Positions 6,433 to 55,580 of a DNA stretch of 64,000 bases are shown piece by piece; position 1 is the stretch's first letter; each line of letters opens with the position of its first letter. The notes beneath the pieces were generated by a model. That model made no database searches. It saw nothing but the letters and a program-made list of their open reading frames with translations, and had not been told where the DNA came from. The stretch lies in assembly GCA_040768665.1 (NCBI GenBank), contig JAXGMN010000031.1, forward strand, positions 36,369 to 100,368, written 5' to 3'. The position numbers and the translations under genes are program-made. The DNA comes from Thermoguttaceae bacterium (GTDB taxonomy: Bacteria; Planctomycetota; Planctomycetia; Pirellulales; Thermoguttaceae).

Positions 6433-6433
6433 C

Positions 6434-26614: not shown

Positions 26615-26706
26615 GGCAGTTTGCCTTCCTGCGCGCGATTTCCGAGGAACTGGTTCAGAAGTGGGCACAAATGACCAATCGCCGGCCAACGCCGGGTCAA
26701 GATTTC

Positions 26707-31319: not shown

Positions 31320-32681
31320 ATGGGTATCCGTTTGGAGGTCATTCAGTATTTCGATGAGGCGAACCGATCGCTGGTGCAGAGGATCCCGGCGGACGGGTCG
31401 GCCGACATCAAACTCGGGGCTCAATTGATCGTGCAGGAGAACCAAGAGGCGATCTTTTTTCGCGATGGGAAAGCGCTCGACCGGTTCAGCCCGGGGCGCT
31501 ACACGCTCACGACGGCGAACCTGCCGCTCATCACGCGACTGTTGACGATTCCGTGGGAGAAGTCGCCGTTCCAGTGTCTGGTCTACTTCATCGGCAAGCA
31601 GACCTTTCTCGATCAGAAATGGGGCACGCGCCAGCCGATCACGTTCCGCGACGCCGACTTCGGCATGGTGCGGCTACGGAGCTTCGGCAAGTTCTCGTTC
31701 CGCGTCGCCGACGCGGCGGTGTTGGTCAATACCCTGGTCGGCACGCAGGGAAAGTACTCGACGGACCAGGCCACCGCGTTCCTCAAGGACCTGATCGTCG
31801 CGCGGATGACCGATCTGCTGGGCACGCTGGGTCTGAGCCTGCTCGATCTGCCTTCGCGTTACGACGAGATCGCCTCCGGCACGCGGGCCAAGGTGAGCGA
31901 GGAGTTCGGCAAGTACGGGCTGGAGCTGGTCGATTTTTTCATCAACGCCATCACGCCGCCGGAAGAGGTGCAGAAGGCGATCGACGCACGGAGCTCGATG
32001 GGAGCCGTCGGCGATCTGAACGCGTTCATGAAGTTCCAGGCGGCCAACAGCATGTCGAAGCTGGCCGAGCAGGGATCAGGTGGCGGAGGAGCGATGGGGA
32101 TGGGAATGGGTGCCGGGTTCGGGATGATGATGCCGGGCATGATTCAGCAGGCGATGGCCGGCGGCGCGGGCCCACAGCCGGCGTCGCCCTCAGCGCCGCG
32201 GCCACAGCCCGCGCCGACTCCTGCCGCCGCAAGCGGAGCCGCCGGCCTCAACTTCGATGACTTGGCTCCGGTCACTTCGGACCCCAAGGCGATGGTCCGC
32301 TCCGTGGCCCGGGCTGCCGGCTACTCGGTGTCCGAGTCGGGCGAAAGCTGGGAGATAACGGTTCCCGTCGGCGCGACCCGCAAGCAGAAGGTCCACGTCG
32401 ACTACGGCCAATCGGATCGCGAGGGACACGCGATGGTCAGCTTCTGGTCGGTCTGCGGTCCGGCGGCCGAGAACAACGCGATGGCGCTGTTGCGTTACAA
32501 CGCCTCGATGCTGCACGGCGCGTTTGCCGTCAAGATGCTGGACGGGGGCCCGGCCGCAGTGCTTCAGGCCAATCACCTGGCCGAAGCACTCGATCCGCTG
32601 GAAATCAGCCGGACGCTCTCCGCGATCGCCTGGCAGGCCGACACGGTCGAGGAAAAGCTCGTTGGCAGCGACGAGTATTGA
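31320..32681 (+). CDS. SPFH/Band-7-like domain protein (COG4260-like, no TM) with a Gly/Met-rich linker and a C-terminal YbjN-like domain
   Basis: 453 aa. N-terminal beta-rich region then a coiled helical region typical of SPFH proteins lacking a membrane anchor. Low-complexity [21 protein letters not shown] followed by [20 protein letters not shown]. The last ~130 aa (PKAMVRS...WEITVPVG...HVDYGQ...[13 protein letters not shown]...[17 protein letters not shown]) resemble the YbjN putative-sensory-transduction-regulator fold. These are motif-level assignments. Confidence 0.5.
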
Positions 32682-32691
32682 GGAGGCGCGG

Positions 32692-34170
32692 ATGCGATTC
32701 ACCTTGGCAACCCGGATCTCGACAGCCGTGGTCGGCGTGGTCGCACTCGCCTTGATGACGAGCGGAGTCGCGCTCTATTCGTCTCGGAATATCAACGATC
32801 TTCTGACGACAACAATCCATAAGAACCTTCCCAGTGTGAGAGCCGCGGAAGAGCTCGAAATTGCACTTTTGGAGCAGCGGGGCATGGTCGGCTCCTACAT
32901 CCTGGACGGTGGGAATCGCGAGTGGCTCGAGGGGCTTCCCGAACGGGAACTCAGCTTCCGCCACTGGCTGGATCAGGCGCGTGCTACGGCCCATACGCCG
33001 AGCGAGCACGCGATCCTCGACGATCTGATGGAGGTCTATCTCCGGTACGACGCCAAGCGCGACCGGGTGATTGAATTGTATGAAGCCGGAGAGACTTCGC
33101 AGGCGAGGGAGATCCTCCTGGGCGACGTCTATGCATTGTACCACCGTGCATATGAGCTCTGCGAGGCGTTCATCAGGGCGAACATTGACTCCGTCGACCA
33201 GTCGGTCGCCTCGGCCACCCGTCAAACGCGCGACGCCGCGCTGCTCACCGTGTTGGCGGTGGTCGTTACGACGGCATTGGGGCTGTTTCTCCTGTGGCTT
33301 TTTTTCGTCGGTGTGCTGCTTCCCCTGCGGCGGATGATCGCCGAGGCAAAGGAGTATGCCGGTGACCGCGCCGGATCCAACGGCGACGAGTTGCGTGCGA
33401 TGGGCGATTATCTGAAGCTGCTCATGTCGGACATGGCCGTGACCAGGAGCAGCCTGGAAGCGAGCGAGGCCAGGCTCTCCAGCGCGGAGAAGTTGGCTTC
33501 GGTCGGCAAGCTCGCCGCCGGCGTCGCCCACGAGATTCGGAATCCGCTCACCGCGATCAAGATGTGGCTCTATTCGATCCGCGGAAGCGTGGCGTCCGAC
33601 GCGGAACTGGACCGAAAGCTTGCCATCGTGTCCGAAGAAATCACCCGACTGGAAAACATCGTCCACGATTTCCTCGAGTTCTCGCGCCCGGCCCCGCTGA
33701 AGCTGGTCCGACACGATCTCCGCTCGATCGTCGGCACCACGTTGGATCTGCTCCGCTGCCGGTTTGAAGAGGCCGGCATTCAGCTCATCTGGGCGTTACC
33801 TCCCGAACCGGTCTGGGTATCGGCCGACTCGGAACAGCTTCGCCAGGTGCTGATCAACCTGGCAAACAACGCGATCGACGCCACGCCGGCGGGCGGCGAA
33901 GTCCGCGTGGAAGTCGGAATGGAATCGGCCGGCCAGATAGGTCCCATGGGGATAGTTCGCATGCGGGACACGGGCGGCGGAATGCCCGACGACGTCCGGG
34001 AGCAGATCTTCGACCCATTTTTCACCACTAAGGAAGGCGGGACCGGTCTCGGGCTCAGCATTGCTGCGCAGATCGTCGCTCGCCACCAGGGACGGCTCCT
34101 CTTAGAGTCCACATCGGACCGCGGCACGACGCTGTCGATCTCAATCCCTCTGGCGGAGCAAGACGGATGA
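32692..34170 (+). CDS. Sensor histidine kinase (two TM helices flanking a ~170-aa periplasmic helical sensor; HisKA + HATPase_c)
   Basis: The start is at the Met of MRFTLATRISTAVVGVVALALM, 11 nt after the SPFH stop. The ORF track begins at 32524. H-box HEIRNPLTAI. N-box NLANNAIDA. G-boxes DTGGGMP and GGTGLGLSIA. Confidence 0.85.
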   Translation: MRFTLATRISTAVVGVVALALMTSGVALYSSRNINDLLTTTIHKNLPSVRAAEELEIALLEQRGMVGSYILDGGNREWLEGLPERELSFRHWLDQARATAHTPSEHAILDDLMEVYLRYDAKRDRVIELYEAGETSQAREILLGDVYALYHRAYELCEAFIRANIDSVDQSVASATRQTRDAALLTVLAVVVTTALGLFLLWLFFVGVLLPLRRMIAEAKEYAGDRAGSNGDELRAMGDYLKLLMSDMAVTRSSLEASEARLSSAEKLASVGKLAAGVAHEIRNPLTAIKMWLYSIRGSVASDAELDRKLAIVSEEITRLENIVHDFLEFSRPAPLKLVRHDLRSIVGTTLDLLRCRFEEAGIQLIWALPPEPVWVSADSEQLRQVLINLANNAIDATPAGGEVRVEVGMESAGQIGPMGIVRMRDTGGGMPDDVREQIFDPFFTTKEGGTGLGLSIAAQIVARHQGRLLLESTSDRGTTLSISIPLAEQDG

Positions 34171-35588
34171 GCAAAATCCTCGTTGTCGACGATGAGCGGA
34201 GTGTGCTGGCGGCGTTCCACGAAATCCTCAAGGACCGGGGGCACGAGGTGGTCACGGCGACTCGTGGCGAAGAGGCTCTCGACGCCATTCAGGCCCGGGA
34301 CTTCGAGCTTGTGGTGATGGACGTTCACCTACCGGGCATCAGCGGGCTGGAGGCGCTGCGGCGGATCAAGTCGCTGCGTCCGAAGCTACCGATCATCATG
34401 ATGACGGGGCGGGGCACGATGAATACGGCCATCGAGGCGACAAAGACCGGTGCCTTTGACTACCATCTCAAGCCGCTCGATCCCGCGGAGATCCTGCGTA
34501 CGATCGATAAGGCCCTGGAAAGTTCTCGGCTCGCCAGGCAGCCGGTCGTTTTCGATACGGACGCGTCCACCGCCGGCGGTGACGCCATGATCGGCCAGAG
34601 CCCCGCCATGCAGGAGGTCTACAAGACGATCGGCCACGTCGCAGCTACGGACGCCACGGTCCTCGTCCGGGGCGAATCGGGCACCGGCAAGGAATTGGTC
34701 GCGCGGGCGGTCTATCAGCACAGCGGCCGCAGCCGGGCTCCGCTGCTGGTGGTCAATTGTGCAGCGATTCCGGAAACACTCTTGGAAAGCGAGTTGTTCG
34801 GCCACGAGCAGGGCGCATTTACCGGCGCTCAGTTCCGCCGCATCGGCAAGTTCGAGCAGGCGGACGGCGGAACGATTTTTCTCGACGAAATCGGGGATAT
34901 TCCGCTTGCGGTCCAGGCCAAGATCCTGCGGGTTCTGCAGGAGAAGACCTTTGATCGCCTGGGGAGCAACGACACTCAACGCACCGACGTGCGCGTGATC
35001 GCGGCGACAAATCGCGATCTGGACGGCGCGATTGCCCGTGGAGAGTTCCGCGAAGATCTCTATCACCGGCTCAACGTGGTCACCATCCGCCTGCCGCCGC
35101 TTCGCGAACGGCGCGAAGACATTCCCCGGCTGGTGGACTATTTCTTGGCCCGGCTGGCCGACGAACTCAAGACGCCCAAGCCCATCGTGTCGAAAGAGGC
35201 GCTGGAACTCCTGGAGGCCTATCCATGGCCGGGAAATGTCCGAGAACTCAGCCACGCGATTCAGCGTGCGATGATCTTTACCCACGGACATCCGATTCAG
35301 GCGGCGGACCTTTCGTCCGTTTTGGAGCATCGCCCCGGCGACCTCGCGCAGTCCGAACTGCTGGCCGACGACGAGCTGGCGAAGGCGCTGGTAGTGCGGT
35401 ATCTCGCCTCGCACGGCGGGGAAGGGGCTCATGAGCGGCTTCTCGGCATGGTGGAGAAACACCTGCTTGCTGAAGCACTCCGCAGGACGCAAGGCAACCA
35501 GACGCACGCCGCCCGTCTGCTCGGCCTGGCAAGGCCCACCCTCCACGCCAAGATGCAGAAACACGGCCTGCGCGAGGAGGGGATTTAG
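34167..35588 (+). CDS. Sigma-54-dependent response regulator (NtrC family: REC + AAA+ + HTH)
   Basis: 473 aa. Overlaps the kinase stop (ATGA). REC ILVVDDE. Walker A GESGTGKE. GAFTGA sigma54-contact motif. Arginine finger region. C-terminal Fis-type HTH QTHAARLLGLARPTLHAKM. Confidence 0.85.
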   Translation: MSKILVVDDERSVLAAFHEILKDRGHEVVTATRGEEALDAIQARDFELVVMDVHLPGISGLEALRRIKSLRPKLPIIMMTGRGTMNTAIEATKTGAFDYHLKPLDPAEILRTIDKALESSRLARQPVVFDTDASTAGGDAMIGQSPAMQEVYKTIGHVAATDATVLVRGESGTGKELVARAVYQHSGRSRAPLLVVNCAAIPETLLESELFGHEQGAFTGAQFRRIGKFEQADGGTIFLDEIGDIPLAVQAKILRVLQEKTFDRLGSNDTQRTDVRVIAATNRDLDGAIARGEFREDLYHRLNVVTIRLPPLRERREDIPRLVDYFLARLADELKTPKPIVSKEALELLEAYPWPGNVRELSHAIQRAMIFTHGHPIQAADLSSVLEHRPGDLAQSELLADDELAKALVVRYLASHGGEGAHERLLGMVEKHLLAEALRRTQGNQTHAARLLGLARPTLHAKMQKHGLREEGI

Positions 35589-35846
35589 ACCGCCGATGTC
35601 CGTTTCCTGACGATGCGTCAGACGCCAGACACCGACGTGACCAGAATTGTCGCATTCTGTTCACGCATTGCGGTGCGAATGTGGCACCGCTGTTCAGCTT
35701 GGTGCGATCCTGTCGGATTTCCCAACAGCGGCACGCCGCTTGCTGCCTCACTGGACCCGCTCGGTTTGACGGTCTACACGAACTGACGCGACATTCTGAC
35801 CGACTGGTCGGGGGCATCACATCAACGGAGTGAGAGGAGTAGCAGA

Positions 35847-36191
35847 ATGCGGATCCGAATCAAGATCCTGAACGATGACCTCAAGTGCGTCGACTTCCAT
35901 TCGGAAGATCTCCCGATTCTCGTGGGAAGCATTGCCGACGCAAATATCTGTGTGGCCGATCCACTGGTCGATCCGCTGCACTGCATGATCGACGGCAACC
36001 GGGGCAGTCTGACCGTCCTCGCGTTGAGCAGCAAATCGGCGACCCTGTTGAACGGAGAACGGATCAGCGAGGCCGAGCTGTCGTCGGGCGACTGCCTGAC
36101 CCTCGGAGCCACCTGTCTGTTGGTCGACTTCGCCCCGCCTCAGCAGCGAGGTGGAGAATACAGAGCCCGCGCGGCAGTTGGTTCCCGCTGA
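35847..36191 (+). CDS. FHA-domain protein
   Basis: 114 aa. GAGAGGAG Shine-Dalgarno. ILVGSIADANICVADPLVDPLHCMI...SKSATLLNGERI...GDCLTLG fits the FHA pattern (G-R...vS..Ha.i....S.NGT.vNg..i...l..gD.i.lG). Confidence 0.55.
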   Translation: MRIRIKILNDDLKCVDFHSEDLPILVGSIADANICVADPLVDPLHCMIDGNRGSLTVLALSSKSATLLNGERISEAELSSGDCLTLGATCLLVDFAPPQQRGGEYRARAAVGSR

Positions 36192-36225
36192 ACGCGTGCC
36201 ATGCGCATGCCTGGAGAATGCTTCG

Positions 36226-36375
36226 ATGAGGAGAAGAGTGCTGGTCGCCGACGACAGCAGCAACATTCGCGAGTACTGCCGGGAAGTGCTCGAGCAGGCA
36301 GGCTACCACGTGGTCACCGTCAAGGACGGCGTGGAAGCACTCGAAACGATTAAGGAAGACCCTCCCGACGTTGTC
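36226..36375 (+). pseudogene. Truncated receiver (CheY-like REC) domain gene, paralog of the complete REC gene at 49868..50323
   Basis: MRRRVLVADDSSNIREYCREVLEQAGYHVVTVKDGVEALETIKEDPPDVV parallels MNTLLFADDRKNIREFCKHELEEEGYRVIVARDGREAVRLVQEEHPDLAILD. REC-like sequence stops after ~50 codons, exactly where the converging antiporter gene ends (36378). The remaining frame reads antisense of that gene. Confidence 0.55.
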
Positions 36376-36377
36376 CA

Positions 36378-38144
36378 TCACATCAGCAGCACCAACAGCC
36401 CCAGCCAGATCGACAGCAGCGCTGCCGCGAACGTCGTTCCTCGCAGCAGCCATGCCTCCACGCCCGCCGTGGCCCTCGCCATGCGGGAGACGTTGCCGCG
36501 GATCTCGCCGGCGCTTTTCCTCAACGCCTCCACGCTCGTCAGGATCTCTCGGACACCGTGCCAGGGCACCCGCAACCCTGGCCCCAAGGATTCCAGCAGC
36601 ACGACCACGTCGCCCGCGGGCACCGACACGGTCCGCCACGAGCGTCTTCGTGAAGACAGCAGCCAGAGCCCCGCGATCGCCACTCCGACCGACACGGGCC
36701 AGACCGCCGTCCAGAGCTTGGCGGGCGAGACGAGCAGGTCGGCGACCGAGACCGCGGCGCCCCAGGGCCAAAGCGGAACCGCCAGCAAGACCGCGGCCAA
36801 GAGGGCTGCCCACGGGACGAACAGACCCTTTGCCTCGTGGGCTGCGTGCGTCTCGGATCGCGGCCAGACGATCACCAGGAAACGGACCATCAAGAGGGTC
36901 GTGGCGACCGTGCCCAAGGTGAGCAGCAAGACCAACACATCCAGCCAGAAGCCGGGAGCGCCGGCGACGGCCAATTTGAGCAGGCTCTTGGCAATCGCCC
37001 CGCTGGTCAGGGGCGCTCCGGCAAGAGACAGGGCGCCGAGCAGGAGCCCCGCTGCCGTCAACCGCCGCATCCAGATCCCGTCTGCCGCGTCCGACACCGC
37101 CACCCCAAGAAACAACGCCCCCTTGGCAAGGCCATGGTGCAGCGCGAACAGAGAAACGGTCGTGACCACCACGGGCGCCGCCAGTTCGCCCGCGAGCCCC
37201 AGGCCGATGGCCGCGATCATCCAGCCCATCTGGCTCACGCTGGAATAAGCCAGCACCGTCTTGGGGTTGGTCTGCGTCAGACCGATGGCAACGCCGTAAA
37301 AAGCCCCGGCAATTCCGGCGGCAATGCACAGATGCGCCCAAGGCTCCAGGCCCGGCACTCCCAGGGGCAACAGCCGGAGCCATCCGATCAGTCCGGCTTT
37401 GATCATCGCCCCGCTGAGGACCGCACTGGCCGGCGCCGGTGCGGCGGGATGGGCCAACGGAAGCCAGAAGTGCAGCGGCAGCAAACCGGCCTTGATCCCC
37501 AGTCCCACCAGCGCCAAGGCCAGAATCAGGTCGCGTAGGGGAGACCGGGCGACGGCGGCAGGCAATCCGTCAAAGTAGGTGTTGCCCGCTGCCGCCGCGG
37601 CCAAGACGAATGCGGCGAACAGGGCCATCTCGCCCACCACCACCAGCACCAGGTAGATCCGTCCCGCGCGGATCGCTTCCTCGTCGCGGTTGTAGACTAC
37701 CAGTCCATAGGACGCGAAGCTCATCAGGGCGAAGAACGAATAGAAGCTGACCATGTCCTGGGCCACCACCAGGCCCAGATTGCCGCTCATCGCCAGGAGA
37801 TAGAAGAAGAGGAAACGGTGGCGTCGCGGATCGTGGGCCAAGTAGCTGCCCGCCGATAGCCCCGCCGTCAGCCAGAGGACCGACGTGAGGAACAGAAACG
37901 CCCGCGCGGTCTCGTCGATCCCCAACCGGCTGCCCAGCAGCAGCCAGGGGACGTCGGCTGAGATCGGACCGAGCGGCAGAACGGCGAGGATCAGCATGGG
38001 CAGGGCCGACCAGGGCGCCAACGACATCGCCCTCGCACGCCAACGGCGAATCAGCAGGCCCCAGGCGACCGCCAGCGGCAAGCCCGTGCCGAAAAGCCAG
38101 GTCAGTCCGCTCGATGCGGCCGTTTCCATCCAGCTTGGCGTCAT
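36378..38144 (-). CDS. Mrp/Mnh antiporter large subunit, MrpA/MrpD (NuoL/ND5)-like (third of three)
   Basis: The start is at the Met of MTPSWMETAASSGL, overlapping the upstream gene by 4 nt. The ORF track extends to 38591. Polytopic. Conserved GLLPLHFWLPLAHPAAPAPASAVLSGAMIKAG motif (compare [22 protein letters not shown] of NuoL/MrpA/D). Confidence 0.75.
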   Translation of the reverse strand: MTPSWMETAASSGLTWLFGTGLPLAVAWGLLIRRWRARAMSLAPWSALPMLILAVLPLGPISADVPWLLLGSRLGIDETARAFLFLTSVLWLTAGLSAGSYLAHDPRRHRFLFFYLLAMSGNLGLVVAQDMVSFYSFFALMSFASYGLVVYNRDEEAIRAGRIYLVLVVVGEMALFAAFVLAAAAAGNTYFDGLPAAVARSPLRDLILALALVGLGIKAGLLPLHFWLPLAHPAAPAPASAVLSGAMIKAGLIGWLRLLPLGVPGLEPWAHLCIAAGIAGAFYGVAIGLTQTNPKTVLAYSSVSQMGWMIAAIGLGLAGELAAPVVVTTVSLFALHHGLAKGALFLGVAVSDAADGIWMRRLTAAGLLLGALSLAGAPLTSGAIAKSLLKLAVAGAPGFWLDVLVLLLTLGTVATTLLMVRFLVIVWPRSETHAAHEAKGLFVPWAALLAAVLLAVPLWPWGAAVSVADLLVSPAKLWTAVWPVSVGVAIAGLWLLSSRRRSWRTVSVPAGDVVVLLESLGPGLRVPWHGVREILTSVEALRKSAGEIRGNVSRMARATAGVEAWLLRGTTFAAALLSIWLGLLVLLM

Positions 38145-39637
38145 AGGTTGAGTTCTCTCGTCGCGATGACTTTCGCCCAGGCCAGCGGACTGATCTCCAT
38201 GCCCGCCAGTAGTCCGACGGCCAAGGCAACCACCGCCGTGGTGACCGGCGGGACCAGAAGCCACAGTCCGACCTCCGGCCGCTCCCGTTCGCCCGTCTCC
38301 ATCGACGGCCACGGGCCGGGCCGGAACCATGCGGCGTAGAGGATCGGCAGAAAGTAGGCGGAATTGAGCAGGCTGCTGGCCACGAGGACGCCGATCACCC
38401 AGGACTGCGACGCCTCCCACGCGCCCAACGCGAGATACCACTTGGTGACGAATCCCGCCATCGGCGGCGCGCCGATCATGCCCAGCGCCCCCAGCGTAAA
38501 CGCGGCCATCGTCCAGGGCATCTGCCGCGCAACGCCGTCCATCTCGCTGACGCGGTGGATTCCCAGGCGTTCGGCCAGGTTGCCGGCGCAAAGGAAGAGC
38601 GTGATCTTCATCAAGCCCTGGTGGACCAGGTGGACTACGCCGCCGATCACGGCCAGCGGAGTTCCCATGGCCACGCCCAGGACGATGTACGAGACCTGGC
38701 TGATGGTTGAATATGCCAGCCGCTTCTTGAGATCGTCCTGCACCAGCGCCCGCAGCGATCCGTAAAGAACCGTTGCCGAGGCGATCACCGCCAGCGGCGT
38801 AAGCAGATCCAATTCGCGGGCGAACTCCAATCCGTAGACGTCGCTGACGACCCGCACGATCCCGAAGGCCCCGGCCTTGACCACGGCCACGGCGTGCAAC
38901 AGCGCGCTGACCGGCGCCGGAGCCACCATCGCTTGGGGCAGCCAGCCGTGCAGCGGCACCAGCGCCGCCTTGACGCCGAAGCCGCCAATCAGCAGTGCGA
39001 AAATGATCTTCAGCGAGGGCAGATGGCGTGCGTCCACCGTGGCCAGGACTCCCCGCTCAATGAAGGCCAGCTCGCCGGTGAGCGAATAGAGCCACGCCAC
39101 CGCAACCAGAAGCACAACGCTGGCGCTGAGCGTGTACATCAGGTAAACCCGGCCGGCGTCGAGGGCCTTCTTGGTGCCGCGATGGACGACCAGCGGATAC
39201 GTAGTTAGTGTGAGGATCTCATAGAAGACCAGGAAGGTCAGCAGGTCGCCGGCGAGGGCGATTCCCACGGTCGAACTGACGCACACGCTGAAATATCCGA
39301 AAAACCGGCTGCGGTTCGGCGAGCCTTCCAGGTAGCCGATGGCATAGACGGTCGTCACCAGCCAGAGAAAGGCCGAGAGGGTGACAAACAGCATCGGCAG
39401 AGGATCGGCGCGGAGCGTGAGGTCAAGTCCCGGCAGAAACGGCATGCTCGCCGCATAGACGTGTTCGTTAGCCACGCCCCAAAGCATGACGCACACCAGC
39501 AGGAGCTTCACGATTGCGCCGCACAGGTTGAGCACCGTTCGCAGCGCGTGAAACTCCTCACGAAGGGTGAAAATGATCAGCCCGGGTATGAGTGAGCTGA
39601 GCAACAGCAGGATAGGAAGCAAAAAGCCCCAGTTCAT
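38141..39637 (-). CDS. Mrp/Mnh antiporter subunit D (NuoL/M/N)-like (second)
   Basis: The start is at the Met of MNWGFLLPILLLL. Motif LVPLHGWLPQAMVAPAPVSALLHAVAVVKAG. 4-nt overlaps on both sides. Confidence 0.75.
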   Translation of the reverse strand: MNWGFLLPILLLLSSLIPGLIIFTLREEFHALRTVLNLCGAIVKLLLVCVMLWGVANEHVYAASMPFLPGLDLTLRADPLPMLFVTLSAFLWLVTTVYAIGYLEGSPNRSRFFGYFSVCVSSTVGIALAGDLLTFLVFYEILTLTTYPLVVHRGTKKALDAGRVYLMYTLSASVVLLVAVAWLYSLTGELAFIERGVLATVDARHLPSLKIIFALLIGGFGVKAALVPLHGWLPQAMVAPAPVSALLHAVAVVKAGAFGIVRVVSDVYGLEFARELDLLTPLAVIASATVLYGSLRALVQDDLKKRLAYSTISQVSYIVLGVAMGTPLAVIGGVVHLVHQGLMKITLFLCAGNLAERLGIHRVSEMDGVARQMPWTMAAFTLGALGMIGAPPMAGFVTKWYLALGAWEASQSWVIGVLVASSLLNSAYFLPILYAAWFRPGPWPSMETGERERPEVGLWLLVPPVTTAVVALAVGLLAGMEISPLAWAKVIATRELNL

Positions 39638-41121
39638 CGCAGGGTCTCGGCAATCGTGTCCAAAGGAAGCGGGGCTGCGATTTCGAGGAGGTCGGCCAGA
39701 GGCGCCGCGGCCATTCCCAGTAGGGCGGCGGTGACTCCCAAGGCGACGGCAGCCGCGTCCATCCGCCAGGGACGCGGCGGGCCTTCCGCCTCCTGGTCTT
39801 CGGCAGCCATCATCGCCCGGCTCCAGAATCGGAACAAGTAGCCGGCCGTCAGAAGTCCTCCGGCGACAATGGCGACTGCCCATCCCCACTGCCCGCTCTG
39901 AATGGCCGCGGTGAGCATCATCCACTTCCCGGCAAACCCGCCGCTGGGCGGCAGGCCCATCAGGCTGACGCTGGCCAGGGCGAAGGCGGTCACCGGCCCC
40001 GGGAGTCGCTGTCCGATTCCTATCAGTCCATCAAGACGGTCGTGCCCCGCCGCGTTCTGAATCGAGCCGGTCGCCAGGAAGATGGCCGCCTTGGCCAGGG
40101 CGTGGGAGAGGGCGATGCAAACGGCTCCGGCCAGCGCGAGTTGCCGCATGCCGGGCAACGACACCAGCGGGAACATGAGAAACAGGTAGCCCAACTGCGC
40201 CACGGTCGAGTAGGCAACCAGCAGTTTCAACCGCTCGGCCCGAAACGCTTGAATCGATCCCCAGACGATCGCCCCGGCGCCGAGCAGGCCCAGCAGTTGC
40301 CCGCCCTCGGAGAGCGTCGCTGCCGGAAACACCTCCAGCCACAGCCGCACGATCATATAAAAAGCCCCCTTCACGACTAGCGCCGACAGCAGGGCGCTGA
40401 CCGGGGCGGGCGCGTTGGCGTGGGCTGGCGGCAGCCAGAAGTGCAGCGGGAATAGGGCGGCTTTGATCAGCAAGCCCGCAACCATCATCGCCGCCGCCAT
40501 CTGGCCGCGAGGCTCGGCGGCGAGCCTCGCGCCGAGCGCCGCCAGGTCGAGGACGCCAAATGCTCCGTACAACAGCGCAACGCCCATCAGGTACAAAAGC
40601 GAGCCGAGCAGTCCCACGATCAGGTACCGCAGGGCAGCGACGATCGCTTCGGTGGTGCCGGCCAGAGCGATCAGCCCGATCGACGCCAGCGTGAGCAGTT
40701 CCAGCGTCACGTAGAGGTTGAAGACGTCGGCCGAGAGGAACAGCGCATTGAGCGACGCCCAGAGCAGAAAGAACAGCGGCCAGAACGTGCCCGCCGTCTC
40801 GTCCGCCCCCTGGTGCGCCCCGCCGCGGAAATAACCCGGGGCATAGAAGGCCACGGCCGATCCGACCACGGTGGTGGCCATCAGCATGACCAGCGACAGG
40901 CCGTCGGCGTAGAGTTCGATGCCCAGCGGGCTCCCCCAGCCACCCAGCGCATAACGAATGGGGCCATGCAGGATCACTTGCCGGCCCAGGCCAAGTAACA
41001 GTGCGGCCATCCCCAGCGGCGCGGCGACGGCAAGCAGGTTCACCAACCGCCGCCCGCCGAGATACGCAATCAGGCCGAGCGCCAAAGGCAGTGTGATCAG
41101 GCCCACGCCCCAATGGTCCAT
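39634..41121 (-). CDS. Mrp/Mnh antiporter subunit D (NuoN/ND2)-like (first)
   Basis: 495 aa. MDHWGVGLITLPLALGLIAYLGG. Motif LFPLHFWLPPAHANAPAPVSALLSALVVKGAF. Confidence 0.75.
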   Translation of the reverse strand: MDHWGVGLITLPLALGLIAYLGGRRLVNLLAVAAPLGMAALLLGLGRQVILHGPIRYALGGWGSPLGIELYADGLSLVMLMATTVVGSAVAFYAPGYFRGGAHQGADETAGTFWPLFFLLWASLNALFLSADVFNLYVTLELLTLASIGLIALAGTTEAIVAALRYLIVGLLGSLLYLMGVALLYGAFGVLDLAALGARLAAEPRGQMAAAMMVAGLLIKAALFPLHFWLPPAHANAPAPVSALLSALVVKGAFYMIVRLWLEVFPAATLSEGGQLLGLLGAGAIVWGSIQAFRAERLKLLVAYSTVAQLGYLFLMFPLVSLPGMRQLALAGAVCIALSHALAKAAIFLATGSIQNAAGHDRLDGLIGIGQRLPGPVTAFALASVSLMGLPPSGGFAGKWMMLTAAIQSGQWGWAVAIVAGGLLTAGYLFRFWSRAMMAAEDQEAEGPPRPWRMDAAAVALGVTAALLGMAAAPLADLLEIAAPLPLDTIAETLR

Positions 41122-41192
41122 GTCAGCCGCTCCTCTCGTTGTGCGGTTTCGCCGCGCGGCTTTCCCTTCCGGCCGAAGGCTCGCCGCGATCT

Positions 41193-41522
41193 TCAGGAAA
41201 AGTGGTCTCTCCCGTCACCGCGTGCAGGCGGCAGATCAGGGCCAGGGCCAAGGCGGTTGCGGCGGACGGCCACCACAATCCCGGTTAACACCAGCGCGTG
41301 CGGCACCGGATCCGGCAGAATTTTCTCCGCGGCAAGTTGCAGCCGGCTGGGATAGGCCAGCGCCACCAGCAGCATGAACACGCCGGTGCCCATCACGTTC
41401 AACGCGAGCACTTTGCGGACCAACTGCGAGAGCACCAAGGCCCCGAACAGCCCGATCCCAAAAAGCGCCACCGCCACCAGGCTGTAGAGCACGGCCGGAT
41501 TCATGTTCGGTTCTCCTGTCAA
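41193..41522 (-). CDS. Mrp/Mnh antiporter subunit C (NuoK-like)
   Basis: MNPAVLYSLVAVALFGIGLFGALVLSQLVRKVLALNVMGTGVFMLLV. Small 3-TM NuoK/MnhC pattern. The start may be the internal Met at 41504. Confidence 0.7.
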   Translation of the reverse strand: MTGEPNMNPAVLYSLVAVALFGIGLFGALVLSQLVRKVLALNVMGTGVFMLLVALAYPSRLQLAAEKILPDPVPHALVLTGIVVAVRRNRLGPGPDLPPARGDGRDHFS

Positions 41523-41527
41523 GAAAT

Positions 41528-41615
41528 GGTACCAATGGGCGACAGAAGTAGGTTCCGCTTGCCGAGCGGGCCCATTGGGGCGAGGTCCCGCTCGGCAAGC
41601 GGGACCTACCGGTGG
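41528..41615. repeat. Full copy of the intergenic palindromic repeat family, lodged between mnhB-like and mnhC. It supplies the mnhB-like stop codon.
   Basis: Nested inverted repeats. ACCAATGGGC pairs with GCCCATTGG. GTAGGTTCCGCTTGCCGAGCGGG (41548-41570) pairs with CCCGCTCGGCAAGCGGGACCTAC (41587-41609; 22 of 23). Tail CGGTGG as in the 31185 copy. Confidence 0.55.
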
Positions 41616-42364
41616 TCATCCTTCTCCTCATTCTCTCGGAAATCTTGGTGCCGCTGGCGGCCCGATTGGCCCGATAGCACGCCGGCTAGCAGGACGATGA
41701 AAATGGCGCCCACCGAGAGCATCGCCGCGGCCTCGATCACGAGGATCCACGCCTTGGCTGATTCCGCAGGGTATTCCAGAAAACGCCTGCCCGCGGCGAG
41801 CATTCCCAGACCGATGCCCCCGAACGTCGCCAGGCCCAGAATCACGGCGACGTGCAGTTTGCGGCCGCGGAACCAGCGGGCGACCGGGGCTCCGGCCAGC
41901 AACAGCAGCACGCCGCCGCCGCCCAGCGCCGCACCCGCCTGAAAAGCCCCGCCGGGCCGGTCGGCACCGATCCACAGCAGGTATCCGGCCACCAGCACGA
42001 CGATCGGCACCACGGCCGCCGCCAGGGCCGCCAGCAACGGTGGCGGGGCGGCCGGCGCGGCGGCGAACCAGTCCTGCCGCCACACCGCCTGAACGCCCAT
42101 CGCCGCCAGCACGAGGACCGCGACTTCCAGCAGCGTGTCGTAGGCGCGGAAGTTAAGCAGCACCCCCGTCACCGGATTCGAAACGCCGCCGGCGGCCACG
42201 AGTCCTTGTCTCGCGTCGCTATCCTGAAAGCGGGCCGTCAGACCGGCCGGTTGCTCCGGCAGCGTCAGCACGCTCCAGGCCACCATTCCGCTGAGCGTCG
42301 CCGTCAAGGCGGCCGCAGCCAACGTGCCCGGCGTTGCCCGCAGCGGCAGATCGTTTGTCCTCAT
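41606..42364 (-). CDS. MnhB-domain protein (MbhE-like) fused to an MrpB-like region
   Basis: NPVTGVLLNFRAYDTLLEVAVLVL (MnhB domain signature). Downstream GADRPGGAFQAG (compare MrpB AGHxxPGGGFxGG) plus TM helices. The true start is probably internal (Met of MVAWS, ~42286). The last ~25 codons and the stop lie in the repeat element. Confidence 0.6.
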   Translation of the reverse strand: MRTNDLPLRATPGTLAAAALTATLSGMVAWSVLTLPEQPAGLTARFQDSDARQGLVAAGGVSNPVTGVLLNFRAYDTLLEVAVLVLAAMGVQAVWRQDWFAAAPAAPPPLLAALAAAVVPIVVLVAGYLLWIGADRPGGAFQAGAALGGGGVLLLLAGAPVARWFRGRKLHVAVILGLATFGGIGLGMLAAGRRFLEYPAESAKAWILVIEAAAMLSVGAIFIVLLAGVLSGQSGRQRHQDFRENEEKDDHR

Positions 42365-42638
42365 GGTCTTCCTCCTTACGAGTCTCCGGTCCCAACGAGC
42401 TCTCCAGCCGGCGGGCGGCCCCCAGCAGCAGAGCCCCTGTCAGGCCGGCGCCGATGGCCACTTCGGCCAGAGCGATGTCGGGCGCACTCAGCCGGGCCCA
42501 AGCCAGTGCGACCAGCAGGCTGAACGAGATGAACAGCGAGACCGCCGTGAACAGCCGCCGCGTCGCCAGGCACTTCCAGGCGAGCCAGACGAGCATCAGG
42601 CTCAAGGTCGCGTCGAACGCCCACAGCAGGACCGTCAT
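42219..42638 (-). CDS. DUF4040-type (MbhD-like) membrane subunit
   Basis: LSAPDIALAEVAIGAGLTGALLLGAA matches the DUF4040 core normally found inside MrpA. Here it is a separate ORF, as in Mbh/Mbx-type clusters. Its 3' end overlaps the next ORF in another frame, so the exact end is uncertain. Confidence 0.55.
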   Translation of the reverse strand: MTVLLWAFDATLSLMLVWLAWKCLATRRLFTAVSLFISFSLLVALAWARLSAPDIALAEVAIGAGLTGALLLGAARRLESSLGPETRKEEDHEDKRSAAAGNAGHVGCGRLDGDAQRNGGLERADAAGATGRSDGPLSG

Positions 42639-42991
42639 CGCTTCTCCCAGGCGGGGATCCCCAGGTCCCGCGCCGACTTGGCCACCAGGTTACACACCGT
42701 GGCGCTGGCAGCCAGGGCCAGGATCCACACCGAGAGTACCTTCAACGCCACCAGCCACGACGCCGATTGCATCGCCAGTCCGATGGCAACCAGCCCCAGT
42801 CCCAGGTTGTCGGCCTTCGTCAGGGCGTGCAATCGGGTGTAAACGTCGGGAAAGCGGAGCAGGCCAACGGTGCCGGCCGCGAAGAAACCGATCCCCGCCA
42901 GACACAAAACGATCGCGATCCCGTCGGCAATTACGGTCCACATCGGCTCACTCCTCCCGGCGGCCTGCGGGGTCGCCGGCCATCCGGACAA
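42635..42991 (-). CDS. Mrp/Mnh antiporter subunit G
   Basis: MWTVIADGIAIVLCLAGIGFFAAGTVGLLRFPDVYTRLHALTKADNLGLGLV is the MnhG/PhaG signature. The start is either the first Met (42991) or the Met of MWTV (42943). Confidence 0.7.
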   Translation of the reverse strand: MSGWPATPQAAGRSEPMWTVIADGIAIVLCLAGIGFFAAGTVGLLRFPDVYTRLHALTKADNLGLGLVAIGLAMQSASWLVALKVLSVWILALAASATVCNLVAKSARDLGIPAWEKR

Positions 42992-43220
42992 AGGCGGTTC
43001 CGGTGACGGCCGCCAGCCCGGCGAAAACCAGTGCCACGTCTCTCAGGGCCGCCGCGTCAAAGACCTCGGCCAGCAGCAACAGGATGGCAACGCCCGTGGT
43101 TCCGAACATCAGCACCGCCAACATGCGGTCTGCGGGCGTGGGCCCGCGAATCACGCGGACCATGCCGGCAGCCACCATCGCCAGGAGCACCACGGCCATT
43201 CCCAGAAGGATCGCGTTCAT
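42948..43220 (-). CDS. Mrp/Mnh antiporter subunit F
   Basis: The 90-aa MNAILLGMAVVLLAMVAAGMVRVIRGPTPADRMLAVLMFGTTGVAILLLLA is found in the C-terminal part of the 316-aa track ORF. The ATGA overlap with mnhE is at 43217-43220. Confidence 0.65.
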   Translation of the reverse strand: MNAILLGMAVVLLAMVAAGMVRVIRGPTPADRMLAVLMFGTTGVAILLLLAEVFDAAALRDVALVFAGLAAVTGTAFVRMAGDPAGRREE

Positions 43221-43813
43221 GGGGAAATATCCAGTCCGTATAAGGCGGCCACTGCCAATTCCAGTTTCCGAAGTTGCTCTTCGAACGGTCCGCCGACGTT
43301 TAGGGCGTGTACGAGGATCCGGTCGGACTGGAAGTCGGCGGTGAGTGTTCCGGGCAACAGGCTCGTCGTGCTGGCGAAAAGCCATCGCGGGGTGCCCGGC
43401 GGCAACCGCATCGAATAGACGCAGAAGCCGGGCTTCAGCGGCAGGTCTCCCGGAGTCATCGCGCGGCGGGCCACGTCGGCGCCGGCGACCAATGAGCTTT
43501 TCAGGAAAAAGGCGACGAACCGGATCATTCCGATCAACCGCCAGCGGAATTTCGGCAACGGCCTCAGCCAAAAGCTCATCACGACCGCAGCGAGAACCGC
43601 CGGGCCGCCAACGATCCAGGAGGCGGCCTCGCCCGAGGTCAGGCCGAGCCAGATGAGAGCGAACATCGCAATGCGGAGGGCCGCGTGGAGGATCTGCTCC
43701 AGGACTTCTTTCGGCGCTCGTTGTGCTGCCACGGCTTCCTCCGCTCCCGCCCATGCAGGCAACGCCCTCCGTGGCGTTCCGCGGAGGACGGGTGGTCGTC
43801 TTGCTTCCCTCAT
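43217..43813 (-). CDS. Mrp/Mnh antiporter subunit E
   Basis: C-terminal PGTLTADFQSDRILVHALNV...EEQLRKLE fits the MnhE signature (PGTLSvD...L.vH.ld). Start uncertain. The ORF track extends to 43891 and a non-ATG start is possible. Confidence 0.6.
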   Translation of the reverse strand: MREARRPPVLRGTPRRALPAWAGAEEAVAAQRAPKEVLEQILHAALRIAMFALIWLGLTSGEAASWIVGGPAVLAAVVMSFWLRPLPKFRWRLIGMIRFVAFFLKSSLVAGADVARRAMTPGDLPLKPGFCVYSMRLPPGTPRWLFASTTSLLPGTLTADFQSDRILVHALNVGGPFEEQLRKLELAVAALYGLDISP

Positions 43814-43927
43814 GCGGAACACCACGGAGGACGTTCCGTACAGCCTGTGTACCCTGGACGCCGAACGCATGCAGCGTCGATCCCCGGGCACTCATCACTC
43901 CCCCGACGCCTGGTCTCTAGGTCCAGG

Positions 43928-45092
43928 TCACGTTTCCCCGCCAGAGAGGATGACGCCCGCGGATGTCGGCCTCCACCTGCCTCCACCAGAGCGCTTCCAC
44001 GATCTGTTTTGCCGTGTCGCTGCACTCTCGGGCGCGCTCGGAGTCGCCCAGCCGCTGGTAAGCCTCGGCGAGCCCCTCCCAGGCCGGCGCGTACACGCGA
44101 TCGGTTTCAATGCAGTGCTGAAATTCCCGGCGGGCCTCTTCGGGCAGCCCCTTTTCCAGGAGTTCTTCGCCGAGTTTGAAGTGGGATCGGACATCGGCGA
44201 TCTCCTCGTCGATCCGCAGCCGAATGGCGTTTTCCGCCTTGAAGCTAAGCAGAGAGCAAGGCATCGCACTGGCGACCCGGCCGGTCACGTGACCCAGCAG
44301 GATACGCGTGAACCCGGTCTTCGCCCCCGAACCCATGACCAGCAGTTTCGCCGCGATTCTCTCGGCTGCGGCAAGGATTTCCGCCGGAGGATCTCCCAGC
44401 CGCACTTCCTTCTCCCAACGGACATTGTGGAAATCGAATTGTCCCAAGAACGCCTCGAAACGACGCCGCTGGTCTTCCTCGTAGGCATTCTGCGCCTCCT
44501 GGCTGACTAGGCCGGAAAACGACCAGAACGTGGTTACCGGCTGAATCACCGTGAGCACCGTAAGCCTGGCGTCGAGATTCCTTGCCAAGTGGATGGCATT
44601 GCTCAACGCGCGGCGCGAAGGAGCGGAGAAGTCAACCGCGCAGACGATCGAATCCAGCGAGACCGGCTGCCCCGGCTTCACGACCCACACCGGTTTGGCC
44701 GAGTGGCGGAGGACTCGCTCCGCCGTGAGGCCCAGGGCCGATGGATCGTCACCGCCCGCGCTGCGGGCGATCACGATCACGTTGGCATCGCGCTCGTTGG
44801 CCTGGCGGAGAATGCCCTCGAAATCGCTGCCCTCCTCGACAATCGGCTCGGCCATCCTCACCCCTTCCCCCCGCAACTTCGAGGCAAGCTCGTTCAGTCG
44901 TTCGAGACTCCTCTCACGGGCCAGTCGCATGACCAGCGCGGCATCCGAAAGCCCCTCCGGCGCCGGTGGAAGCACGTTCAACAGCAGCACCTCGGACTGA
45001 AACGTCCGGCCGAGCGCCGATGCGGTGGCCAGCACGTCGTCGACGCCGGTTTGGAAGTCGGTGGCGACAAGTATTGTTTGCATAAGTCTCAT
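43928..45092 (-). CDS. Tandem universal stress protein (UspA x2) with C-terminal TPR-like helical region
   Basis: Two Usp units. ILVATDFQTG...VIVIARSAGGDDPSALGLTAERVLRHSAKPVWVV and IVCAVDFSAPS...LLVMGSGAKTGFTRILLGHVTGRVASAMPCSLL. The tail WEGLAEAYQRLGDSERARE is TPR-like. Confidence 0.75.
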
Positions 45093-45660
45093 GATGTTGC
45101 CTCCGCATCGCCCGGCCCTGCTGGCCCTGAAAGAGACAATGGATATTGGAGAAGAACCATGCGATTTTCTGCGTTTACCGACGCGGCTCCCTCAAATGGA
45201 TTATAGACGATTTGATTCCGCGGGCAATTGACCACCTTGTGCCGGACGTTGGCCGGTGGCGGCTGGGTGGTCTGATCAAGGAAAGGGACGGGCACCGCAA
45301 GAGTGGGTTGCCGGAGCGAATCGAGACGGTCTTGCGGATCCAGCCCCCCGCTTTTCATCACCCCAGGGGTCAGGGGCAATCCGCGCTTACGGCCGGCGGC
45401 CCAACACGTGGCGCGATAGCGGCGCGTCAGGCCGCCGCGCGAGTAGCTGGTAATGTCTTGACTGCGTACAATCGTCAATGACGGCAGCCACGTTCCACAT
45501 CGGGGAGGCCGGCATCGAGATGCGCTGTGCCACTTCGCGTGCCCTCGACGCAAGAAAGGGGGCAGTCCCGCCAGGGTGGGCATAAGCGGGCCCGATGTCG
45601 CGGCCTTCGTGGCAGCTTGCGCCGCGGCTTTTGAGTTAAGTCCCGAAAGGAGTTGGATAG

Positions 45661-47507
<1,847 letters not shown>

Positions 47508-47534
47508 TCTGTTATCACTTCACTCACGACCGCC

Positions 47535-48410
47535 ATGATCACATCCGACGAACGGCCTGCCACGGCGCCGCCGGCTCCGACCATTACGCTCGACGCCTAC
47601 TCGCCGGAGCAGATCGCGGAGCGCGTGGAACGCCAGGGCGTATACAAGAGCAGATTGCCGCCGTTCACCATGACGATGCTGGCGATCGTGGGAGGGGGAT
47701 TCATTGGCCTCGGCGCGATGTTCCAAATCGCCGTCCTCGCCGATCCCGACCTGAACGCCGGATGGAGCCGCATGATCGGCGGTGTGGCATTTGCCACGGG
47801 CTACCTGATCGCCATGACCGCCGGCGCCGAAGTGTTCACCTCGAACAACCTCACTGTGATGAGTTGGGCAGCCCGCAAACTCAGCACCATGCGGCTCCTG
47901 CAGAGTTGGCTCGTCGTGCTGCTGGGCAACGCCGTGGGAGCCGGCGGACTGGCCCTGGTCATCGTTCTTTCCGGGCACATGGCCATGCACGAGGGAGCCG
48001 TGGGGCGGGTCGCAGTTCAGATCGCGGCGGCGAAGGGCTCGGAATCCTTCCTCTACGCCTTTTTCGGCGGGATTATCGGTAACCTGCTCATCTGCGTCGC
48101 CGTTTGGATCGCCATGGCGGGGCGATCGGTCACGGACAAGTTTTTCGCGCCGCTTCTGCCGATTGCCGCCCTGTCGATCGGAGGCTTCGAGCACTGCGTG
48201 GGCAACATTTACTACATGTGCAGCGGCCTGCTCACCGTGGCTGTGCAGCCGGGGCTGTATCCAGACGGCAGCGCACTCGACACCTGGCGCGCCATGCACA
48301 ACCTGTTTGCAGTCACCTGCGGAAACATCTTCGGCGGGGGAGTGATGGTCGCGTTGGTCTACCACGTGATCTATCGCCGCTTGGTCGAGCAATGGAGCGA
48401 CCCGTCGTAG
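47535..48410 (+). CDS. Formate/nitrite transporter family (FNT: FocA/NirC-like) channel
   Basis: 291 aa, 6 TM. The characteristic FNT loops FATGYLIAMTAGAEVFTSNN and GGFEHCVGNIYYM are present (compare AGAELFTGN and FEHSIANMY). Confidence 0.8.
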   Translation: MITSDERPATAPPAPTITLDAYSPEQIAERVERQGVYKSRLPPFTMTMLAIVGGGFIGLGAMFQIAVLADPDLNAGWSRMIGGVAFATGYLIAMTAGAEVFTSNNLTVMSWAARKLSTMRLLQSWLVVLLGNAVGAGGLALVIVLSGHMAMHEGAVGRVAVQIAAAKGSESFLYAFFGGIIGNLLICVAVWIAMAGRSVTDKFFAPLLPIAALSIGGFEHCVGNIYYMCSGLLTVAVQPGLYPDGSALDTWRAMHNLFAVTCGNIFGGGVMVALVYHVIYRRLVEQWSDPS

Positions 48411-48566
48411 AGAGGCCGCGGGATGAATCGCCGTTCACGCCTCCTTAGCCTCCAGTAGTTGCTGAGGTGGCCGGCCTTGGCGTCGCCCAGCAGGAAGATC
48501 GTCTTCGACTTTTTGGAGAGCGGGTTTTCCACGACGGAATACCCCGGCCGGTCGCCTTACGATCTG

Positions 48567-49834: not shown

Positions 49835-49867
49835 CGTTGCTACTCCTTCTCCATGTGACTTGGTCTC

Positions 49868-50323: not shown

Positions 50324-50738
50324 CGTTTGCCAGCCTTATTGTCGTAGTGCCCTCTGCCTTGCTTCTCTTGCGACGCACGAGGCTTTGGAGTACCAGGTAA
50401 GCGCCGTCGTCTGCCGCCAGAACCGACACGAGCAATTCGACCTGCGCCTAGCTCGGCGTGTAATCGCCCATCCACTCCGTCCGTTGCTCGTGAAAACCTT
50501 CGTGTCGCATGGCACGGTGCCGCCGTCTTGGGCAAGTCAGTTAAGAATTCTCCTCGATGGTTTGTTCTGAGGCCGGACACGATTGAGGGCAATTTGCGTG
50601 CCGCAACCGGGAGTGAGTCGGGTCGCGGCACCGCAAGTCGTTCACGGCCAACAAGATAATCTCGCCGGCTCCGGAGACTACCGGGGCACGGAACTGCGAT
50701 AAACGTCCGCTACTCGACCGCGCGTCAGGAACCTGGCA

Positions 50739-55574: not shown

Positions 55575-55580
55575 AGGCTT

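Follow-up and report, generated by a model that had tools for sequence, protein, structure and literature searches.

The 64 kb window of Thermoguttaceae bacterium DNA analysed here (contig JAXGMN010000031.1) contains a co-oriented block of nine genes for Mrp-type cation/proton antiporter subunits, at 36378–43732, in the order E-F-G-MbhD-B-C-D1-D2-D3. The block was delineated by open reading frame (ORF) listing, inspection of start codons and translation; coordinates refer to the minus strand of the window unless stated otherwise, and domain calls to the Pfam gathering score. MrpE (43217–43732; PF01899, E=2.8e-23) has 171 residues when read from the GTG at 43732, with an ATG at 43666 as an alternative start, and its orthologue in the related locus L015 has 172. 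It is followed by MrpF (42948–43220; PF04066, 90 aa), MrpG (42635–42943; PF03334, E=1.2e-22, 102 aa) and a separate MbhD/DUF4040 subunit (42219–42638; PF13244, E=1.3e-17), the equivalent of transmembrane helices (TM) 17–19 of MrpA. The next gene, B (41606–42364), encodes a 252-aa fusion of MbhE (PF20501, residues 26–97) with an MrpB-like MnhB domain (PF04039, residues 111–224). The NuoK-like MrpC (41124–41504) has 126 aa once a single base is removed, and the repaired protein matches PF00420 (E=2.3e-17). Three large antiporter-like subunits complete the block: D1, of MrpD/MbhH type (39634–41121; 495 aa, PF00361, E=1.4e-48), D2 (38141–39637; 498 aa, PF00361, E=1.4e-62, and PF00662) and the divergent D3 (36378–38144; 588 aa, PF00361). 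All of the Mrp/CPA3 subunit families were recovered above the gathering score, PF00361 three times and PF00420 after the 1-nt repair, and the gene content and order E-F-G-DUF4040-MnhB-C-D-D-D given in a preliminary description of this DNA were confirmed by both ORFs and Pfam, as was the separation of DUF4040 and MnhB with no full-length MrpA. Directly upstream of mrpE lies a Usp-Usp-TPR gene (43917–45092; PF00582 in two stretches, E=2.8e-45, plus TPR families), the tandem-Usp gene that had been said to head the cluster.

The same families were recovered with NCBIfam, every one below its equivalog cut-off, and the MrpA equivalogs all fell far under theirs; the operon proteins are thus recognisable yet divergent family members. 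Against PDB chains, B matched MbsE best (6u8y_E), followed by MrpB, MbhF and MbhE, and is the counterpart of the end of MrpA plus MrpB, or of MbsE. The best match of MbhD was MbhD itself (6cfw_D), with MbsD also found, so the Mbh-like character proposed for the small subunits stands. Motifs that we take to be typical of Mrp systems are visible in the translations of MrpF (GPxxDR, here GPTPADR), MrpG, MbhD (APDIALAE) and MbhE (FRAYDTLLE). The ratio of non-synonymous to synonymous substitution rates (dN/dS) relative to L015 is 0.10–0.35 across all genes, with MrpF at 0.10 and the Usp gene at 0.17; the operon genes are under purifying selection.

The junctions are less uniform than had been described: instead of a 4-nt overlap almost throughout, an ATGA overlap occurs at four of the eight (E/F, G/MbhD, D1/D2 and D2/D3), while F and G are separated by 4 nt and B and C by about 100 nt, and MbhD overlaps B by 146 nt in another frame. 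We considered whether MbhD and B might be one frameshifted gene and rejected the idea, as L015 retains the ribosome-binding site and the ATG start codon of B, substitutions in the B frame are synonymous, and dN/dS for MbhD rises from 0.23 over codons 1–91 to 4.5 over the last 48 codons. This 48-codon tail is unconstrained read-through, and the functional part of MbhD comprises approximately its first 91 codons. The split between MbhD and B is found exactly as in the window in two genomes of 7–9 Mb (L017 and L018), and the MbhD, MbhE and MnhB parts form one 332-aa protein in a Gemmataceae metagenome-assembled genome (MAG; L013).

As assembled, mrpC carries a +1-nt frameshift at approximately position 41262, revealed by three-frame translation of the DNA, so that its ORF ends at 41193 with 23 unrelated residues; the +1 frame gives a typical third helix and a stop codon 1 nt before the ATG of D1. 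The alignment reads gtcCGCCgca in the window against gtcAG-Cgca in L015, where MrpC is an intact protein of 126 aa. On the 3′ side of the lesion the differences from L015, read from the alignment by eye, comprise seven synonymous and two non-synonymous changes in the repaired frame. As these are mostly synonymous, the lesion is either very recent or an error of sequencing or assembly.

The three large subunits

The three large proteins were compared by their bit scores with PDB chains and with NCBIfam models. By sequence, MbhH (6cfw_H) is the top PDB match for all of them, but they differ in what lies behind it. D1 scores 177 bits with MbhH and 168 with MrpD, has MrpD (NF009306) as its best NCBIfam model, and by these profiles seems plainly MrpD-like. 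D2 (MbhH 162, MrpD 154, MrpA 141 and NuoL 138 bits) leans towards the cores of MrpA, NuoL and NdhF. D3 reaches 97 bits at best, with MbhH, and its best NCBIfam model is HyfB. With 50 orthologues as input, AlphaFold2 modelled D3 at a mean pLDDT of 86, with values above 90 in the 14-helix core. When this model was searched against the PDB with Foldseek, NdhF, MrpA and NuoL came first, with full-length alignments, ahead of MrpD; the match to MrpA (7qru_A) gave E=4.9e-18 and a TMq of 0.75. The tail of the model consists of helices at 474–498, 512–539, 547–566 and 569–587. Residues 516–560 have a mean hydrophobicity near zero and a hydrophobic moment of 0.45–0.55, and are flanked by the hydrophobic segments 474–497 and 566–588. 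D3 is therefore predicted, on the model, to have the TM15–amphipathic lateral helix–TM16 layout of NuoL and the N-terminal part of MrpA. The preliminary description counted three MrpD/NuoL-type subunits, and there are indeed three PF00361 proteins, but the third is not a plain MrpD, given this predicted NuoL/MrpA-N-like tail.

A glutamate in TM5 is canonical in the pumping subunits of this superfamily. This residue and the lysines of TM7, TM8 and TM12 are present in D1 and D2, in 11 of 11 orthologues of each, with one exception at TM8 in D1. D3 keeps the TM7, TM8 and TM12 lysines, but alanine or threonine stands at the position of the TM5 glutamate in all eight orthologues compared; the residue in the window is A139, which is conserved at 90% or more among 50 sequences. 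Between loci, orthologues of D2 have diverged least (62–67% identity), those of D1 more (50–58%) and those of D3 most (44–52%). Since D1, D2 and D3 are each orthologous from locus to locus, the triple is old and did not arise by local duplication.

Conservation and genomic context

A scan of a genome collection with D3 returned 12 loci at 43–52% identity, in alpha- and gammaproteobacterial MAGs (among them Thiogranum and Ectothiorhodospiraceae, mostly groups of saline or alkaline habitats) and in a Syntrophaceae MAG. With ten window proteins as tblastn queries, E-F-G-MbhD-B-C-D1-D2-D3 was colinear wherever the contig was long enough, so that 12 loci besides the window, from several phyla, have a colinear operon, with MbhD and B sometimes fused. 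The carriers include the proteobacterial MAGs, the Gemmataceae MAG, L015, L017 and L018; one of the latter two genomes carries a protein named at NCBI from Candidatus Entotheonella factor. A protein search yielded hundreds of D3 orthologues of 575–600 aa, from sources including Gemmataceae, Candidatus Entotheonella factor, Desulfobacterales, Binatia and Rubrobacteraceae, under labels such as "complex I subunit 5 family protein" and "formate hydrogenlyase subunit 3/MnhD".

In the window itself, none of the roughly 60 ORFs scanned over 64 kb belongs to the NuoB/C/D/H/I, NiFe-hydrogenase or ferredoxin families, in agreement with the statement that catalytic subunits are missing, nor would a redox module fit into any of the unannotated stretches. 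The neighbourhood comparison that had been suggested gave the same picture: in L013, L015, L017 and L018 the operon stands alone, and the genes called over about 10 kb around it include no redox genes. When 71 flanking ORFs from eight proteobacterial loci were assigned to Pfam families, LysR regulators came first (five), followed by Usp and the S30AE hibernation factor (three each), and Na_H_Exchanger occurred once. Usp neighbours occur in six loci (L002, L004, L007, L010, L015 and L018), accompanied in L018 by BON and S30AE, and the Usp-Usp-TPR gene is syntenic in L015. In L015 and L016 a gene for a Na_H_Exchanger+TrkA_C protein lies directly downstream of the operon.

The position of the Usp genes varies. 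A tandem Usp gene comes right after D3 in L004, L007 and L010, and in L002, a gammaproteobacterial MAG, a Usp-like gene (3934–4602) sits inside the operon between mrpE and mrpF; the link to Usp recurs at differing positions. A baeRF-family gene (45661–46809, plus strand) is divergent beside the Usp-mrp block in the window, an arrangement kept in L015 (912–2063). In the latter, a Logan assembly, D1 and D2 are broken into calls of 365, 59 and 369 aa (6067–8663), which suggests indel errors or frameshifts there.

The GC content of the block is 0.65–0.67 against about 0.62 in its flanks, and the named relatives nearest to it, at about 50% identity, are proteobacterial. On these grounds we considered a horizontal origin of the block, and dropped it, since the Gemmataceae copy is equally distant and the codon bias of membrane proteins can explain both the difference in GC and a strong AT skew.

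The Usp–mrpE spacer, the D3 breakpoint and the rest of the window

No terminator-like site was found between the Usp gene and mrpE, and the Usp gene is possibly co-transcribed with the operon. Promoter and terminator scans performed no better than on shuffled sequence, a promoter-like site at 45227–45200 being at chance level. The spacer does contain a near-perfect long hairpin, formed by an inverted repeat of approximately 21–24 bp at 43763–43833. The RNA fold of 43725–43920 has an energy of −93.6 kcal/mol (z=−2.47), and a 21-nt pattern taken from one arm of the hairpin occurs nowhere in the window except in its two arms. Compared with L015, in which the hairpin stretch is absent (unaligned), the spacer has about 100 nt more. 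The element could be an operator, an attenuator or a determinant of RNA stability. Riboswitches for Na+ and Li+ are known to precede antiporter genes; the possibility of such an element, or of another known RNA, in the leaders was dropped, as an Rfam scan of 35500–46000 gave no credible family, the sole sub-threshold match, to a miRNA family, being the hairpin itself and spurious.

At the other end of the block, the stop codon of D3 (36378–36380) is abutted by a stump of a response-regulator receiver gene of 50 codons (36226–36375, plus strand; MRRRVLVADD...PPDVV), which lies outside the Mrp system. Homology to L015 (84% nucleotide identity) and to L016 (92%) stops at the last codons of D3. 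Past this point both relatives have two extra D3 codons, a spacer and the Na_H_Exchanger+TrkA_C gene, of which the window holds no copy; the remainder of the receiver gene was searched for in the window and not found either. The junction at the D3 stop codon appears to be a breakpoint of a deletion or rearrangement, or else a chimeric assembly join, at which D3 would have lost its last two ancestral codons and the ancestral downstream Na+/H+ exchanger gene would have been removed. The signalling genes that the preliminary description noted as flanking the cluster are present beside D3, but they owe their place to this junction, whether rearrangement or chimeric join, and the association is not ancestral.

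Elsewhere the window encodes three further Usp-domain genes or domains, a formate/nitrite transporter, the baeRF gene, two-component genes, a P-type ATPase and a match to the BBP7 porin family, the last in keeping with a planctomycete host. A second deletion scar is found at 50739–52206, where the N-terminus of a kinase (4HB sensor plus half of HisKA) is joined at approximately 51.27 kb to AAA-lid and HTH_8 segments; this remnant is paralogous to the histidine kinase/NtrC pair encoded at 32524–35588, with about 2 kb missing from the middle. It belongs to a segment of about 9 kb (46810–55766) between the baeRF gene and a DUF2238-homologous ORF (55581–56261), two genes that are adjacent in L015. 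The segment also holds two Usp genes, the formate/nitrite transporter, a single-domain response regulator, a SpoIIE-type phosphatase and an M50/CBS peptidase. At 17748–26689 lie two genes for very large, repetitive surface proteins of 1625 and 1206 aa, with cadherin-like, Calx-beta, SdrD_B and SpaA domains; internal repeats in their DNA are 65–70% identical.

Function, rival explanations and known relatives

Group 3 Mrp systems are those without a full-length mrpA, with one or more mrpD genes and an irregular gene order (PMC5703873; PMC8415708; class after Swartz 2005, Ito 2017, Haja 2021). The operon in the window agrees with this definition: its largest antiporter-like protein, at 588 aa, is without DUF4040 and MnhB, and three genes carry PF00361. 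In group 1 and group 2 systems an MrpA of approximately 770–960 aa unites a NuoL-like core, DUF4040 and an MnhB domain, with MrpB additionally fused to it in group 2, and the genes run A(B)CDEFG; here the corresponding domains fall to three different genes, in a permuted order. The preliminary description had allowed that the locus might prove to be a standard group 2 operon with MrpA intact; it belongs instead to a third group that had already been described. Nor does it have the make-up of a respiratory complex of the MBH, MBS, Mbx, Ech or Fpo type, as there is no NuoH/MbhM anchor and no NuoB/C/D/I-like gene in the window. The layout, which had been presented as unusual, is that of published group 3 Mrp systems (PMC5703873; PMC8415708), is listed for 'Ca. 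Nitrospira alkalitolerans' (PMC7784846) and is colinear in the 12 further loci. The nine-gene, three-pump layout is widespread and already in print as annotation, and the operon is an ordinary member of the little-studied group 3, although no paper in the literature searched reported a three-pump member that had been assayed or solved.

We consider it probable that the product of the locus is a free-standing monovalent-cation/proton antiporter of Mrp group 3 (CPA3), powered by the proton-motive force (pmf). Of the two readings offered in the preliminary description, the comparative data favour that of a stress-associated, multi-pump Na+(K+)/H+ antiporter, and such an antiporter with a three-pump proton arm is the best-supported reading that we infer by analogy. 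Its observed part comes from the genes present and their domain identities, from orthology and the widely conserved layout, from the lack of a redox module and the signs of purifying selection, and from the fold of D3 and the pattern of charged residues. For subunit arrangement, ion specificity, direction, stoichiometry and regulation we argue from relatives, with the assembly drawn after the solved structures of Mrp, MBH, MBS and complex I. In the scheme that we envisage, MrpE, MrpF, MrpG and the MnhB half of B would constitute a Na+(K+) translocation module, and MbhD, the MbhE half of B and MrpC a NuoJ/K-like connector, from which D1, D2 and D3 would extend as a proton-conducting arm analogous to NuoN/M/L. 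D3 would be terminal, its TM15–amphipathic helix–TM16 tail strapping the arm in the role played by the N-terminal part of MrpA in groups 1 and 2. Influx of protons through the arm, driven by the pmf, would be electrostatically coupled to extrusion of the cation at the E/F/G/B end, and three proton-path subunits rather than two might allow a higher H+/Na+ ratio, helpful at high pH or high salt. The operon lies in a stress neighbourhood and would probably be expressed with, or regulated alongside, the tandem Usp gene.

Several points weigh against this scheme. The C-terminal 80 residues of D3, which include the putative strap, are modelled as low-confidence helices (pLDDT ~50), and the missing TM5 glutamate may mean that D3 does not conduct protons. 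Ion specificity and direction in three-pump members would follow from analogy only, and the Mrp system of Pyrococcus furiosus has been proposed to run the opposite way, with Na+ entering and H+ leaving (PMC8415708). The view covers 64 kb of the genome, so an unlinked partner may lie elsewhere. Lastly, with a frameshift in mrpC and the end of D3 on a breakpoint, this particular copy may be inactive.

Of these doubts, the one concerning a partner elsewhere corresponds to the second reading of the preliminary description, a membrane arm awaiting an unlinked catalytic module, in which pumping would be driven by redox chemistry and not by the pmf. The gene order E-F-G-D-(E+F)-C-H and the fusion of MbhE with MbhF are the same as in the MBS arm of P. 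furiosus, and the best matches of B (MbsE) and of D1–D3 (MbhH) point in the same direction, as does the fact that inspection extended over 64 kb. In known complexes the MbhM/NuoH membrane anchor is encoded together with the arm, but a coupling subunit of this type is absent from every locus whose gene content was read, and the families of NuoH/MbhM, NuoB/C/D/I and hydrogenase were not found in the window. Redox genes are likewise missing from the examined flanks of L013, L015, L017 and L018, and no redox family figures among the 25 most frequent of the 84 flank families in the eight proteobacterial loci; in total, the flanks of 11 related loci were covered, over as much as 10 kb where contigs reached that far, and showed no redox module. 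The recurrent neighbours are Usp proteins, hibernation factor and Na+/H+ exchangers and not electron-transfer genes. Furthermore, the predicted MrpA-type closing tail of D3, which would close a stand-alone Mrp, sits where MBH binds its redox module (PMC8415708 Table 2). We regard an unlinked catalytic module as very improbable.

That the window copy is decaying or inactive, with MrpC deprived of its last TM helix and the 3′ end of D3 clipped by the event that took the exchanger gene, is easier to entertain but still distinctly unlikely. The extra nucleotide in mrpC relative to L015, the way in which homology to L015 and L016 breaks off at the end of D3, next to a truncated receiver gene, the second scar at ~51.27 kb, where a histidine-kinase stump meets an NtrC C-terminus, and extra insertions in the B/C and Usp/E spacers compared with L015 would all fit such decay. 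However, the other reading frames are all intact and under purifying selection, the substitution pattern makes the mrpC lesion very recent or artefactual, the loss from D3 amounts to only two residues, with a stop codon gained directly after them, and a chimeric join is possible, the quality of the NCBI assembly not being established. A functional Mrp-type complex might also serve some purpose other than Na+ extrusion: import of Na+ to expel H+, exchange of K+ or Ca2+, or proton capture or charge balance in dormancy. The direction proposed for the group 3 Mrp of P. furiosus (PMC8415708), the Ca2+/H+ antiport of Thermomicrobium Mrp (PMC5703873) and the recurrence of Usp, BON and ribosome hibernation factor genes nearby lend this some weight. 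Against it, the one reviewed bacterial group 3 system to have been assayed, that of Aphanothece, is a Na+/H+ antiporter that confers salt tolerance (PMC5703873), and the carriers include Ectothiorhodospiraceae, Thiogranum and, from its published locus, the haloalkalitolerant 'Ca. N. alkalitolerans' (PMC7784846). On balance we think a role other than Na+ extrusion unlikely, if not strongly so.

A more speculative proposal is that the three-pump operons form a mechanistically distinct Mrp subclass, in effect a free-standing complex I antiporter arm of NuoN/M/L-like D1, D2 and D3 on a NuoK/J-like connector, in which D3, its TM5 glutamate conservedly lost, might be chiefly a clamp formed by the lateral helix, or else a modified proton gate, and the H+/Na+ stoichiometry would be unlike that of two-pump Mrp. 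This is a tentative idea that we would not expect to hold, but if true it might offer a simple bacterial model for the addition of pumps in machines of the complex I type. For the preferred reading, a stand-alone group 3 antiporter, the more immediate consequence concerns annotation: the block should be labelled as a group 3 Mrp antiporter and not as a fragment of a hydrogenase or complex I, as the source names "complex I subunit 5 family protein" and "formate hydrogenlyase subunit 3" would suggest. Current views are not overturned, and the window copy carries lesions. The value for bioenergetics is modest and lies in a widespread, stand-alone system with three antiporter-like subunits, the terminal one without the canonical TM5 glutamate; an intact orthologue would be a tractable system in which to relate pump number to ion stoichiometry in the Mrp/complex I superfamily.

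Among known systems, one of the closest is the locus of 'Ca. N. alkalitolerans' (NSPALKALI_v1_30027–30035), which its authors call a group 3 Mrp (Daebeler et al. 2020, PMC7784846, Table S3, Fig. S8). It reads mrpE, F, G, tag 30030, B, C, D, "mrpA/D (nuoL)" and "mrpA/D (nuoM)", the same order as here, in a comparison made through the gene table only, for a locus that is annotated and not characterised. In that table nhaB, a single-gene Na+/H+ antiporter, lies two tags beyond the mrp genes, much as a Na_H_Exchanger gene adjoins the operon in L015 and L016. The stand-alone Mrp of P. furiosus, mrpEFGBB′CD, also lacks an energy-input module (Haja et al. 2021, PMC8415708); its coupling ion is Na+, and its deletion alters the pH dependence of growth (PMC8415708). 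It shares with the operon in the window the order E-F-G-B-B′-C-D, the absence of a full-length MrpA and of a redox module, and the presence of the C-terminal domains of MrpA as small genes. However, it has one MrpD and no NuoL-like closing subunit, where the window encodes three large subunits including D3, and the fusions differ, with MbhD joined to MbhE and MbhF separate in P. furiosus, and MbhD separate and MbhE joined to MbhF here.

The MBS (sulfane reductase, 6u8y) and MBH (6cfw) complexes of P. furiosus supply the best matches of MbhD, B and D1–D3, namely MbhD/MbsD, MbsE, which is itself a fusion of MbhE with MbhF, and MbhH, and MBS has a second antiporter-like subunit, MbsH′, with TM15–16 (PMC8415708 Table 2). 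With one antiporter-like subunit in MBH and two in MBS they differ from the three seen here, and equivalents of MbsM/MbhM, J, K, L and N are missing from the window and from the related loci. The group 1 and 2 Mrp complexes (Anoxybacillus 6z16, B. pseudofirmus 7qru and Dietzia 7d3u) share all seven subunit functions with the operon, D3 superposing on MrpA and D1 matching MrpD. Here, nevertheless, D3, MbhD and the N-terminal half of B divide the equivalent of MrpA between three genes, one antiporter-like subunit is added, the order is permuted and D3 is without the TM5 glutamate. In Aphanothece halophytica the operon mrpCD1D2EFGAB provides Na+/H+ antiport and salt tolerance in E. coli (review PMC5703873). 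By published order alone, it is a circular permutation of the operon in the window, with a short 'A', a B and more than one MrpD, although it has two large subunits against three.

The membrane arm of complex I (NuoL/M/N with NuoK/J/A) offers the remaining parallel, having three antiporter-like subunits in series, the last with a lateral amphipathic helix such as is predicted for D3, and a NuoK-like subunit. It differs in its NuoH, NuoA and Q-module, none of which is found here, where the Mrp E/F/G/B cation module takes their place. In 'green complex I' two MrpD-like subunits replace NuoL (PMC9040806), and in "green" and five-pump complex I the lateral helix carried by the MrpD-like subunits varies in length with the number of pumps, an idea that applies to both the complex I arm and the three-pump operon described here.

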